A stretch of DNA of 64,000 nucleotides from an uncultured bacterium (lineage in GTDB: Bacteria; Babelota; Babeliae; Babelales; Vermiphilaceae): contig OY969901.1 in NCBI GenBank assembly GCA_963704465.1, forward strand, positions 1,053,331 through 1,117,330, read 5' to 3'. Under the pieces are notes generated by a model that saw nothing but the letters and a program-made list of their open reading frames with translations, searched no databases and was not told the DNA's origin. Shown here one piece after another: positions 18,956-48,264 of this stretch. Within the stretch, counting starts at the first letter, position 1. The number at the start of each line of letters is the position of its first letter. A program made the translations under genes and the position numbers.

Positions 18956-19060
18956 AAAGGGGGGAGGGAAACCTCTCTCGTTTTGCTTTGCATTGAGATC
19001 CTCGCTTAATAGCTTACGTTTATTTTTTTTATGTTAGTTAATATCAATTGGCTTTTCTTT

Positions 19061-19310
19061 GCAGAGAATGATTGCGCATTCTCTGCACTGCCAGCCTTCG
19101 CACAAGGCTTCGGCGGCCAGGCACGCCAAAGTCCGCCATAGCTTCAGCGACGGCGGAACCAGCCGTTCCCTTGGATTCCTCAGGCGGCCGCAACCTCGGC
19201 CTACAGCACCTTTCAGGTGCCCGTTGAGCTGGCTGCCTACTCAGAGGTACTTATTACAATAAAAATTTTAACTCAGCACCTAAACGCACGCTTTGCTGCG
19301 AACCTGTGCT
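19061..19310 (+). repeat. GC-rich intergenic repeat element, copy A
   Basis: By hand count, 118 of the 190 bases in 19061-19250 are G or C, between visibly AT-richer flanks. It shares exact 15-16-mers with copy B and two exact 10-mers with copy C (see findings). It starts with the hairpin GCAGAGAATG-attgcg-CATTCTCTGC. Confidence 0.75.
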
Positions 19311-19350: not shown

Positions 19351-19974
19351 TTACTGACACTGCTTTTCTTCTGTACAGACAGCGCGCAGTCGTTCTAACA
19401 AATAATTTTTATTAATTTTATGCTGTTGATCACTCTTACCTTTTTCAATTAATACTTGCACAAAAATCGAAGGGTTCGCATTATACGTATGTGCACTTTC
19501 TTGTTTTAGACCACCAAGGTAAAAATAAGTTGGCTCAATTGCCATAAAAACGGATCGTGTTTCCATTTTTGTAACGTTAGTTTTTTCATCGTGAGTGAGG
19601 TACTGTGGAAGCTTTTTTGTAAGCTCGTCTTTGCTAAACTGCTTTCTCAAAAAGGTGTAATCACTATGATTGCGTTGATTATTCAAATTTTCTTTGATGT
19701 GTAAGGGAGAGTCCATTTCAACAAGAGAACTACAACAATCATGATCAAGGCCATCGTCATCAAGATACCGGTACCGATCATGTTCGATTTTTTCTGCAAC
19801 ACTACTCATTGTTTCTTTTTTTGCTGCATATAACAAAGCCCAATCAATAATTTTTATCTCCTGCGCAGCAATTTCTTTATTCTCTGACAAAAAATCAACC
19901 GTTGGATTATCGGCACCACTCAAATAAAAAATGTGCATAAAGCATACAGTCACCGGAAAAAATTTATGAAACAT
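19351..19974 (-). CDS. Hypothetical secreted protein
   Basis: AGGAG SD upstream. Leader MFHKFFPVTVCFMHIFYLSGA. It starts 8 nt after the stop of the HigA-like gene, so the two are probably co-transcribed. Confidence 0.6.
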   Translation of the reverse strand: MFHKFFPVTVCFMHIFYLSGADNPTVDFLSENKEIAAQEIKIIDWALLYAAKKETMSSVAEKIEHDRYRYLDDDGLDHDCCSSLVEMDSPLHIKENLNNQRNHSDYTFLRKQFSKDELTKKLPQYLTHDEKTNVTKMETRSVFMAIEPTYFYLGGLKQESAHTYNANPSIFVQVLIEKGKSDQQHKINKNYLLERLRAVCTEEKQCQ

Positions 19975-19982
19975 AGCATCTC

Positions 19983-20294
19983 CTACTTTTTAACTTGTTC
20001 AATACTCATTTCAAAACCAATGGCATGCAATACTGTTTTTAATGAACTCAGCCGAGGGTTGCCATTGGGGGAAAGCATGCGGTATAAGTTTTGTTTATTG
20101 AGATTGGTCACCTCAGCAAGGTGAGGAATGTTACCGCCGCGAGCCTCAAGCACATCACGGAGCGCTAGTAAGAAAACACGCTCATCATCATCGGCAAGCG
20201 CAGCTCGTAAATATGAAGCCGCCTCAAGTGGATCCTGCAGGTGTTCTTGTAAAATTTCTTTATAATCTCTATACACACGCTTTGTTTTAGTCAT
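19983..20294 (-). CDS. Addiction-module antidote protein, HigA family (HTH)
   Basis: 103 aa. ...ASYLRAALADDDERVFLLALRDVLEARGGNIPHLAEVTNLNKQNLYRMLSPNGNPRLSSLKTVLHAIGFEM matches the conserved pattern of this antitoxin family (recalled from memory, no search run). GGGAG SD-like sequence upstream. Confidence 0.8.
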   Translation of the reverse strand: MTKTKRVYRDYKEILQEHLQDPLEAASYLRAALADDDERVFLLALRDVLEARGGNIPHLAEVTNLNKQNLYRMLSPNGNPRLSSLKTVLHAIGFEMSIEQVKK

Positions 20295-21517: not shown

Positions 21518-21586
21518 AAACATTTACCTTTCATACCTCTCTTTATATTGATTCGATTCTTCATTTTTTTGCGAATATCAATAGGC

Positions 21587-21878
21587 TTTTTTCGCGAAGG
21601 CGTTGCACGACGCCTCCGCCCTCCCGTGCCAGGACTGTGTCCTGAACCTCTAAGCAACTCGAAACGCGTCGCTACAGCGCATAAGTAATGCGCCCGCTTA
21701 GCTTTCGAATTGCGCTAAAGTACTCATTAAATAATTTTTTAAAAGTGCTCCTCAGCACGGTTCGCAGCAAAGCGGGCGCGCTCAGCGCTGTAGCGCAGCG
21801 TGTCGAATCGACGAAGGAATCCAAGGGAACCATTGGCGCGCGTGGCGCGGAGGGTGCGCAATCACCCTTCGCAAAAAA
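21587..21878 (-). repeat. GC-rich intergenic repeat element, copy B (inverted relative to copy A; has terminal inverted repeats and an internal palindrome)
   Basis: Ends are TTTTTTCGCGAAGG (21587-21600) and CCTTCGCAAAAAA (21866-21878). Internal inverted arms at 21671-21723 and 21745-21794 surround an AT-rich centre. Confidence 0.75.
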
Positions 21879-22005
21879 TAACCCATTGATACTCAAAAAA
21901 CCAAAATCTATGCCAACAAGAAAAAGAATGAAGACAAAAAAGAAAAACAACGATTTCTACACATAATATTTATCACCTCTTCTTTTTCCGCTATACTATT
22001 TTATT

Positions 22006-47564: not shown

Positions 47565-47793
47565 TTGTTATGCGAAATGACGTGCCGCATGATGCTAAAA
47601 CGCAAACCTGAAATTATTGAACTTATTCCGCAGGATCATCCCGAAACTATTGCTGCGTTAAAATCACAAGGCACCATTTAGTAATCTATACACTATAACC
47701 ATGATTAATACGCACAGAAGATTGGCGTGTTACGAATGTCTATAAAATATGATAGATGAGAAAGAATTATGGGGAACCCCAAAAGTGAAAATA

Positions 47794-47896
47794 GGCGAAG
47801 ACTGCCCGCCTTCGTTAGTCCGCTTACAATAAAGCTGTAGCGTGATTCAACTTCGGCGTGGCACTACGCCATAGCTCCTGAAGGAGCGACGGCGAG
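47794..47896 (+). repeat. GC-rich repeat element, short copy C, abutting the ssrA 3' end
   Basis: CGCCATAGCT (47867-47876) and AGCGACGGCG (47885-47894) are identical to 19134-19143 and 19146-19155 of copy A. GCTGTAGCG also occurs in copy B. Confidence 0.65.
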
Positions 47897-48264
47897 TGGT
47901 GGAGGCGATGGGAGTCGAACCCATGTCCGCATCAACATTGGCGCCAGGTACTCCATGTATAGTCTTTAATTATACAGCATGCATCACCGTAAAGACGCGA
48001 TATAATGCACACGATTGCTTAGTGATACTCGCTTACGCTTTGCAAAGCAATTGAATCGTACGCGCGAGTCCTATTTGGGTTTATACGAGGCTATGACACA
48101 TATAGGCATGCATCATAGACAAGAACTAATTGCTACTCGAGCAATTAGTTACGCGAAAACTGGTTCGCCGTTTATTGTTTTTGCCTGCGTGTTTTACGAG
48201 CCGACAAGCTTCGCTCGACATGCACCCATCGCGAACGCTAACCCGTCGAAACCGTTACGCCCCC
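47897..48264 (-). ncRNA. ssrA: tmRNA (SsrA)
   Basis: Read on the minus strand, the 5' end is GGGGGCGUAACGGUUUCGACGGG and the 3' end is GGACAUGGGUUCGACUCCCAUCGCCUCCACCA. The acceptor stem has a G3:U pair and the T-arm is AUGGG-UUCGACU-CCCAU. The candidate tag frame is GCA AAA ACA AUA AAC GGC GAA CCA GUU UUC GCG UAA. It lies immediately downstream of smpB. Confidence 0.9.

Follow-up and report, generated by a model that had tools for sequence, protein, structure and literature searches.

Copy B is a GC-rich repeat that occupies positions 21575–21892 of a 64,000-nt stretch of contig OY969901.1 (hereafter, the window). The stretch belongs to the source genome G000, a single contig of 1,253,067 bp with 41.3% GC. 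Copy B belongs to an old family of modular intergenic repeats, rich in hairpins and restricted to one lineage, and we consider it somewhat more likely than not that this family acts in cis as RNA. Judged from its sequence, the family is probably a new structured repeat acting as RNA and resembling either the repetitive extragenic palindromes (REPs) and bacterial interspersed mosaic elements (BIMEs) or the Rickettsia palindromic elements (RPEs). The hairpin structure of its members is under selection and is preserved on the strand read outward from the centre of the element.

Copy B and its repeat family in the genome

A first-pass annotation made from the letters of the window had placed copy B at 21587–21878 and described inverted ends, an extra end motif, facing inner arms, an AT-rich centre and high GC content. 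All of these are found both by reading the sequence and with a repeat finder. The 13-nt end arms TTTTTCGCGAAGG (21588–21600) and CCTTCGCAAAAAA (21866–21878) are 92% complementary, and the extra arm TTTTTTGCGAA (21565–21575) is a perfect complement of 21868–21878. The inner arms pair over 22 nt (21659–21680 with 21785–21806, 86%) and over 14 nt (21690–21703 with 21766–21779, 93%). The GC content of the element is 55%, compared to 41% in the window. The annotated borders coincide with real arms, but conservation across the copies defines the slightly larger element considered here: in the alignment of all termini it begins at the ATATCA box, and both ends of copy B are matched by the nhmmer terminal profile and by the covariance model R1 (21573–21637, minus strand, 74.5 bits; 21828–21894, plus strand, 61.6 bits). 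One more pair of arms, I3 (21558–21570 with 21922–21934), belongs to the weak T-rich/TCGAT flank that spans approximately 21545–21935. The parts of copy B, and copy A, the second member of the family in the window, are as follows.

21575–21892: conserved core of copy B, bounded by the ATATCAATAGG box (at 21575) and by the inverted partner of that box (ending at 21892); a head-to-head heterodimer with an AT-rich centre
21545–21574: left outer flank, T-rich, with a TCGAT box; weakly conserved among copies (flank comparison of all termini)
21575–21718, sense strand minus: left unit B-L, with a body module, the hairpin CCAGGAC-ACA-GUCCUGG and a terminal module
21594–21619, minus strand: left terminal hairpin, 10-bp stem (21594–21603/21610–21619) with a 6-nt loop, read from the sequence
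21719–21746: AT-rich centre, containing the conserved C-box AGTACTCATTAAATAATTTTTT at 21719–21740
21747–21892, sense strand plus: right unit B-R, with the hairpins GUGCU-CCUC-AGCAC and GCGCUGUAGCGC, the motif GGAAUCCAAGGGAACC and a terminal module
21847–21872, plus strand: right terminal hairpin, stem 21847–21856/21863–21872 with the loop CGCAAU, followed by an A-run (21873–21878) and CCCATTGATAC, read from the sequence
21893–21935: right outer flank, A-rich on the plus strand
19039–19310, sense strand minus: copy A, a solo unit with its terminus at 19039–19099 and an AT-rich inner end at approximately 19250–19275

The body module of B-L consists of a long closing stem and an inner hairpin, GCGCAU-loop-AUGCGC. 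In BLAST comparisons B-L is 90% identical to positions 786515–786683 of the genome and 89% to 394832–394999, and B-R is 83% identical to 132683–132815 and 78% to 458197–458365. The predicted minus-strand RNA fold of B-L has the energy of −63.6 kcal/mol (z = −4.27), and the plus-strand fold of B-R, −56.7 kcal/mol. The fourth pair of the left terminal hairpin is G·U on the minus strand and A·C on the plus strand. The structures initially described as terminal inverted repeats are in fact conserved hairpin modules at the 3' ends of two units in divergent orientation, and a large internal palindrome is seen in copy B because both units happen to carry the GCTACAGCGC/GCGCCCGCTT module.

Self-BLAST clustering of the genome assigned copies A and B to one component of 22 intervals. 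A loose regular expression for the terminal motif (three mismatches allowed) produced 498 mostly random matches, and an iterative nhmmer profile of the end module was used instead. It detected 28 termini, and the covariance model, 29–30; the E-values of the terminal-module matches range from 1e-5 to 6e-16, far beyond chance. The termini form approximately 20 loci, ten of them full elements with inward-facing termini 310–395 nt apart and about ten solo ends, including copy A. The repeat status proposed initially is thus borne out by this genome-wide census of a non-coding, multi-copy sequence. All loci are intergenic, seven between convergent, three between divergent and ten between tandem genes. 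Housekeeping genes predominate among the neighbours, e.g. lon, ABC-F, cmk, thrS and a PBP2 gene, and copies cluster locally at 390–397 kb and 753–787 kb. The two overlapping open reading frames (ORFs) of copy B, 92 aa each, are artefacts, as had been suggested: they have no Pfam match, and homologous copies contain stops or lose the frame (tblastn). Lys-rich short ORFs in the outward flanks were also considered and rejected, as the length of their first-ATG frames (1 to 36 aa) is not conserved across termini; the Lys-rich frame at 21893–21935 is most likely an artefact, given that A-rich sequence yields Lys codons trivially.

The family is built of modules. The halves of copy B (query positions 1–185 and 191–330) match different loci of G000 independently in BLAST, and the best identity between copies, about 90%, extends over half an element. 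Units are approximately 130–220 nt long and contain 4–6 hairpins each. Read on the sense strand, a unit has an AT-rich start, variable hairpin modules drawn from a common kit and a hairpin with a GGAA-type or GCA-type loop. At its outer end lie the conserved 10-bp terminal hairpin, whose loop contains GCA and whose stem has a conserved G·U pair, then an A-run and an (A/T)TGATAT box. In the alignment of termini read inward, a weak TCGAT box and a T-rich stretch of about 16 nt precede ATATCAnTAGG and a T-run. Next come the 10-bp stem, whose 6-nt loop reads TGCRCG or ATTGCG, and the sequence CCGCCC or CTGCAC. The second hairpin has one of the alternative forms CCAGGAC..GTCCTGG, AAACY-TGC-RGTTT and CCAGC-nTTCC-GCTGG, and beyond it lie the variable modules and the AT-rich end. 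The end pattern of the family can be written as ATATCAnTAGG-T6-CGCGAAGG-hairpin, and the paired boxes TCGAT-N16-ATATCA flank the termini.

The C-box (AGTACTCATTAAATAATTTT) occurs once and in fixed polarity in each of the ten full elements, and it is also present in several solo units. Because the unit carrying it is always partnered, past the AT-rich spacer, by a unit of a different type, full elements are heterodimers. No orientation bias of the C-box along the genome is apparent from inspection of the coordinates. Units may stand alone (copy A), head to head (copy B and nine other loci) or in tandem, the latter in the relative G049, where three near-identical head-to-tail units with a 230-nt period are followed by one inverted unit. 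The G049 unit arrays lie at L028 1440–2300 (G049 C1, approximately 49.3–50.2 kb), 146.4–147.2 kb and 718.6–718.9 kb. Since G049 holds tandem units, the unit, rather than the inverted pair, is the building block.

Some termini have an optional outer module, the long perfect palindrome GGAATTTTAAGGGGTAAnnTTACCCCTTAAAATTC, located 60–80 nt outside the terminus (G000 128449–128475, 132875–132897, 395071–395094 and 396977–397000), with variants at 391.5 kb and 759.4 kb. The outer hairpin TTTTAAGGGGTAAnnTTACCCCTTAA was considered as a general terminator and rejected, being restricted to 4–6 loci of the copy A/B family. An outer hairpin of the relative G063, ATCTCCAGCTTAACGCCGGAGACC, is analogous to the outer palindrome of G000 and unrelated to it in sequence; it carries a G·U on the outward strand, and in many cases a T-rich stretch comes after it.

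Copy A (R1 match of 57.3 bits) is of the same family as copy B, with only patches of sequence in common. Copy B had been described as inverted relative to it. This is true of B-R, an inverted homologue of the copy A unit sharing with it GGAATCCAAGGGAAC and the ATTGCG-loop terminus, but the AT-rich centre and the sequence just past it are collinear in both copies. Copy A is situated directly downstream of the minus-strand gene 19351–19974. It is not the terminator of lon, since lon has a canonical terminator-like hairpin of its own, followed by a T-rich tail, at 18958–18979, approximately 60 nt ahead of copy A. The gene 19351–19974 is an unannotated 207-aa ORF whose 3' end abuts copy A; it adjoins a 103-aa ORF (window positions 19983–20294, minus strand) that matches the "probable addiction module antidote" family, PF21716 (E = 1.7e-12).

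Hairpin conservation, strand asymmetry and related GC-rich islands

In the terminal stem of 30 copies taken from G000 and from the metagenomic locus L023, 95% of the cells pair, versus 72% in shuffled sequences and 44–54% with slid partners. Seven of the ten pairs are altered on both sides. In the larger set of 45 copies (six genomes and L023), whose alignment was fitted to the covariance model and hence is biased towards structure, 97% of the cells pair and eight of the ten pairs are altered on both sides. The fourth pair in this set was read in the direction from centre to terminus: 23 copies have G·U there, 12 have A-U, 9 have G-C and none is unpaired; on the opposite strand, the 23 G·U copies would have an A·C mismatch. 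Body modules of the type found in the left half of copy B have four compensatory pairs, and several of their positions are G·U in most copies, again on the outward strand.

The same asymmetry is seen over whole units. In 27 of the 28 units of G000 the outward strand is the one with the lower folding energy, the mean gain being 8.6 kcal/mol and the mean z-scores −3.5 versus −2.7. It contains 136 G·U pairs, versus 80 on the inward strand, and single helix mismatches are A·C in 6 of 30 cases on the outward strand and in 29 of 50 on the inward one. In other genera, 19 of 23 units are asymmetric in this way. GNRA tetraloops (8 outward, 2 inward) point weakly in the same direction.

Two further GC-rich short-repeat families revealed by self-BLAST are hairpin trailers located directly after the CCA of tRNA genes and tmRNA. 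Such trailers follow approximately 30 of the 36 tRNA and tmRNA genes and fall into a few recurring types, and several of them extend into an AT-rich spacer and an inverted partner. The type GTCATTTCTGCAAGAAATGCCTGGCAGGCCA, with a GCAA tetraloop, is found after at least 11 tRNAs, and the type CTCGCCGTCGCT..AGCTATGGCGTAGTGCCACGCC, after tmRNA, tRNA-Tyr, tRNA-Leu and tRNA-Cys. Examples are listed below.

Window 47780–47896: trailer 3' of tmRNA (47897–48264, minus strand)
G000 671901, 672024, 674180 and 737648: trailers
G000 815000, 927810, 238126 and 832969: further trailers

Some modules, e.g. GCCTTGTGCGAAGGC and CGCCGTCGC..GCTATGGCG, are common to the trailers and the copy A/B family. In eight of these matches the tRNA sense corresponds to the outward strand of the repeat and in three, to the opposite strand, which agrees weakly with the asymmetry described above. 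These trailers may serve as terminators or as processing signals, or they may be a repeat that targets tRNAs.

Altogether, long ORFs aside, there are 96 GC-rich islands. The copy A/B family accounts for 22 of them, a link to tRNA or tmRNA genes exists for 34, and 40 remain. Several of the latter look like further modules of the same style. Islands with GAAGC/CTTCG-type hairpins, belonging to neither family, are located at G000 78142–78235, 98782–98887, 381762–381883, 475965–476114, 656013–656106, 675577–675704, 906511–906624 and 923893–924000, which suggests that more families of similar style exist.

Distribution among relatives

A BLAST search of copy B against 40 relatives from other genera produced no matches, and the covariance model was needed to detect homologues. 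Among 60 genomes of the same family, R1 terminal modules were found in G063 (7), G023 (6), G049 (8), G020 (2) and G007 (3). A 150-genome sample of the order, searched at E ≤ 1e-4, added G168, from the genus of G063, and a single match in another family (G105). Only a few of the approximately 200 genomes searched carry the module, and other species of the genus of G063 are without it. The copies of the relatives keep the layout described above, and the GGAATCCAAGGGAAC motif occurs in the genera of G063 and G007. An exact-pattern scan of species-representative genomes yielded zero matches, and a metagenome scan, one true locus (L023) and one chance match in a high-GC organism (L024).

The organism of L023 is a relative of G000 (DNA 70–77%, proteins 70–83% identical), and the locus is collinear with G000 123–138 kb. 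Its element of approximately 515 nt sits exactly at the site of the 128-kb and 132-kb elements of G000, with the hairpins altered by compensatory substitution. One site is therefore occupied in two species. The best terminal-module match between G000 and L023 is 92–98% over 41–57 nt, whereas the flanking genes are 70–77% identical. A second L023 element lies at a synteny break, and the corresponding points of G000 carry no element. The G000 site (128400–132900, versus L023 5337–6078) is split by a 4.4-kb insert containing genes for a 481-aa protein and then a small acidic protein (toxin-like, possibly a toxin/immunity pair) as well as an IS5-like transposase gene (131452–132213, minus strand).

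At the site of copy B, upstream of the ABC-F gene, 11 other genera have a short AT-rich spacer with no terminal module; synteny there is weak. Copy B is neither unique to its locus nor a conserved single-copy regulatory leader, the two outcomes that would have spoken against the first-pass annotation of it as a repeat.

Spread, mode of action and comparison with known repeats

According to the reading we favour, the units would act single-stranded, most likely as RNA transcribed outward from the AT-rich centre or within neighbouring transcripts. Their role might be that of a cis-acting RNA structure providing 3'-end protection, processing or insulation, similarly to the hairpin trailers of tRNAs. 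The family would spread and reshuffle mainly by duplication, module exchange and recombination and not by cut-and-paste transposition. Several observations make RNA the likelier active molecule. The two ends of a dimer favour opposite strands, an argument against a single-stranded DNA transposon that works on a single strand. Wobble pairs and GNRA loops are found on the outward strand, the transcribed tRNA trailers use similar modules, and in G063 terminator-like hairpins are located downstream on the outward strand.

A number of facts weigh against this reading. A σ70 consensus scan finds no properly spaced promoter in the centre of the G000 elements, and no canonical terminator follows the G000 units, whereas canonical hairpins with T-runs are present elsewhere in this genome, e.g. 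after lon. The terminal hairpin was considered as an intrinsic terminator and rejected, as its T-run lies ahead of it on one strand and becomes an A-run behind it on the other. An RNA end made of a hairpin and an A-run is unusual. No public sequencing run holding this stretch was found. The outward strand is G-rich and its shuffles also fold better, so part of the energy difference comes from composition; moreover, the copies are related by descent, and hence the 27 cases of 28 are not 28 independent tests. Among the mismatches of single-stranded DNA, G·T is the most tolerated one, and for this reason the asymmetry does not separate RNA from single-stranded DNA. Module matches between the trailers and the copy A/B family are only 17–30 nt long. 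The orientation of units relative to genes is not consistent: 17–18 of the 28 termini face the 3' end of a gene and about ten face a 5' end, and only six of the ten solo units are sense-oriented behind a gene. Between convergent genes the incoming transcripts meet the antisense unit first, which fits poorly with a simple 3'-end role.

The main alternatives concern mobility and the molecule that acts. The first-pass annotation saw in copy B an architecture like that of a miniature inverted-repeat transposable element (MITE), inferred either a non-autonomous mobile element or a REP/BIME-like structured repeat, and proposed a search for target-site duplications. In the classical form of this explanation, the repeat is a deletion derivative of an insertion sequence (IS) with a DDE transposase, mobilised in trans and creating such duplications. 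The inverted ends of about 55 nt conserved among copies, the small size, the non-coding, multi-copy and intergenic character, the patchy distribution among genera and the presence in G000 of active-looking IS3-type (four copies) and ISAs1-type (two copies, 100% identical) elements and an IS5-like transposase gene are in its favour. The expected duplications are absent above the control level: direct words shared by the flanks of the ten full elements have the mean length of 5.0 nt, versus 5.3 nt in mismatched-flank controls, whereas the ISAs1-like copies of the same genome have perfect 10-bp duplications and sharp CAGGGCAACCGCATG inverted ends. The terminal modules, inverted at ten loci, are hairpin-bearing with fuzzy outer limits, and in both the alignment of termini and the flank comparison the borders fade gradually. 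The ends of the IS3-like and ISAs1-like elements of G000 (GTAAAGTGCACCCC... and CAGGGCAACCGCATG...) are unrelated to those of the repeat, and the element-bearing loci of G000 contain no transposase gene other than the unrelated IS5-like one inside the 4.4-kb insert. Copies are at most about 90% identical over half an element, and their halves are recombined as independent modules, solo and in tandem. Finally, a DDE transposase binding double-stranded ends leaves the strand-specific G·U covariation unexplained. The MITE explanation is largely refuted by these observations, and we give it hardly any credence. A single-stranded mode of mobilisation, of the REP/REPIN (REP doublet forming a hairpin) or IS200/IS605 type, by an HUH (Y1) transposase since lost or too divergent, with the present copies being fossils, has in its favour that structure is conserved over sequence, that one strand is favoured and that the terminal stem has a conserved mismatch or wobble. 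Conserved structure, strand preference and stem mismatches are features of REP, attC and IS608 ends. The inverted doublets also resemble REPINs, and the element-bearing G049 has six IS200-type Y1 transposase genes. None of these adjoins the unit arrays, and Y1 transposases, including the REP-associated tyrosine transposases (RAYTs), have no match (PF01797) in G000, G063, G023, G020 and G007, G049 being the only positive one of the six element-bearing genomes tested; the same search finds matches in 6 of 14 control genomes. TnpB (PF07282) has no match in G000 and, among the six element-bearing genomes, is found in G023 only. The search for a cognate IS200/IS605 or RAYT transposase suggested by the first-pass annotation was therefore negative for G000. 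Furthermore, units of 130–220 nt far exceed REPs of approximately 20–40 nt, the favoured strand is the bottom one at the left and the top one at the right whereas IS200/IS605 ends use one strand, and the left and right units are usually unable to pair into a long REPIN-type hairpin. We regard this explanation as unlikely.

In a further explanation, each unit would be a gene for a trans-acting RNA of 130–220 nt, full elements being divergent pairs with a bidirectional AT-rich promoter and the terminal hairpin serving as a protein handle. This would account for the strand-specific covariation in several helices, for the loop motifs conserved across genera (GCA in the terminal hairpin, GGAA in the next one), for the upstream AT-rich region retained by every unit, solo units included, for the conserved outer hairpin with a terminator-like T-rich tail after the terminus in G063, and for the terminal module being more conserved between G000 and L023 than the flanking genes. 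It is at odds with the lack of a σ70-like promoter in the centre and of a terminator in G000, and with the Rfam searches. At gathering thresholds the whole window has no Rfam match except tmRNA, at E ≤ 10 nothing credible is found in copies A and B, and at E ≤ 0.05 nothing is found in 11 other loci, including those of relatives. In addition, about 28 diverged mosaic paralogues with freely shuffled modules are atypical of a trans-acting RNA with a single function, the distribution is patchy even within one genus, and no public sequencing run was found to hold the stretch. Such RNA genes thus appear improbable. Alternatively, the palindromes may bind nucleoid proteins, gyrase or a recombinase as a duplex or cruciform, the loci being rearrangement hot spots. 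The 4.4-kb insert at the site shared with L023, the second L023 element exactly at a synteny break, the local clusters of copies and the paired TCGAT-N16-ATATCA boxes are consistent with this DNA-level site; yet a duplex or cruciform role gives no reason for the bias towards G·U over A·C, and rearrangements are expected of any dispersed repeat, so they imply no selected function. We consider such a site very unlikely.

A retro-mobilised element resembling short interspersed nuclear elements, whose A-rich tail the A-run would match, was rejected, since reverse transcriptase (PF00078) has no match in any of the six element-bearing genomes tested. An element derived from IS200/IS605 (a palindrome-associated transposable element) or a guide-RNA end of TnpB/IscB disagrees with the absence of PF01797 and PF07282 from G000 and with the opposite favoured strands, and no match to HEARO was found. 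The insertion sequences of G000 deserve a separate mention. The identical ISAs1-like pair is located at 212450–213640 and 593614–594804, and the four IS3-type copies, 97–100% identical, at 195659–196916, 431665–432916, 605824–607081 and 795046–796298. The copies being near-identical, and those of the ISAs1-like pair having perfect 10-bp duplications, transposition in this reduced genome is recent.

A more far-reaching reading is put forward tentatively and is, as a whole, less likely than not. The units may constitute an undescribed class of transcribed structured RNAs of one family of Babeliales (Dependentiae), divergently transcribed from a compact bidirectional AT-rich promoter and with the conserved 3'-terminal hairpin, its G·U pair and GCA loop, and the A-run as a handle for a dedicated protein or RNase. 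They would form one system with the tRNA and tmRNA trailers for making or protecting RNA 3' ends, a lineage-specific system that would also have become a self-propagating repeat.

A REP/BIME-like nature had been named as the alternative to a mobile element. The mosaic of hairpin module types in alternating orientation is indeed that of BIMEs, but RAYT is lacking and the units are far above the REP size; no GTAG-type head was noticed, and the units are not short palindromes of about 20–40 nt with a 5' tetranucleotide. The family shares with the BIMEs and REPs of enterobacteria and pseudomonads the intergenic, multi-copy occurrence, short conserved spacers, lack of target-site duplications, conservation of structure above sequence and frequent location at gene 3' ends. 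It differs from them in having units of 130–220 nt with several hairpins instead of approximately 35-nt REPs, termini with a T/A-run and an ATATCA box, no RAYT or Y1 transposase in G000 and a distribution restricted essentially to one Babeliales family. REPINs are likewise inverted pairs of structured units around a short spacer, with the doublet as the common form, but REPIN arms pair and depend on RAYT, while the arms of the copy A/B elements are usually of differing types unable to pair.

RPEs are palindromic repeats of 100–150 nt and more in small genomes of obligate intracellular bacteria; like the present family, they are old, 70–90% identical, have no known transposase and no target-site duplication, and occupy orthologous sites across species. 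RPEs often lie in frame within protein genes, whereas the copy A/B family is entirely intergenic, consists of modular heterodimers with strand-specific covariation and has no sequence similarity to RPEs. Pneumococcal BOX elements (boxA-boxB-boxC) and neisserial Correia elements (alpha/beta ends) are also modular and intergenic, with strong predicted RNA structure and in positions from which adjacent transcripts can be affected. Correia elements are bounded by sharp inverted ends of 26 bp and duplicate a TA target, neither feature being present here, and BOX modules come in fixed order and orientation, in contrast to the inverted heterodimers of the copy A/B family; sequence similarity to either and Rfam matches are absent.

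Structured intergenic repeats such as REP/BIME, RPE, BOX and Correia are known in a handful of well-studied bacteria, and for most of them the way of spreading and the action as DNA or RNA are still debated. A full-text literature search found no description of the copy A/B family, which is unreported in Dependentiae, intracellular protist parasites that are uncultured or barely cultured. It is distinguished by modular units of unusual size, clear compensatory changes over evolution, a wobble signature specific to one strand and the lack of a recognisable mobilising enzyme. Present in at least six genera, with a single orthologous site and with units in solo, tandem and inverted arrangements, the family provides a comparative system for studying how repeats persist in a reduced genome of 1.25 Mb. 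Its GC-rich islands and mirror-image ORFs are also liable to be miscalled as genes by annotation pipelines. The possible link with the trailers hints at a lineage-specific biology of RNA 3' ends, and the family would gain in interest should its units turn out to be transcribed and connected with the tRNA-trailer system.

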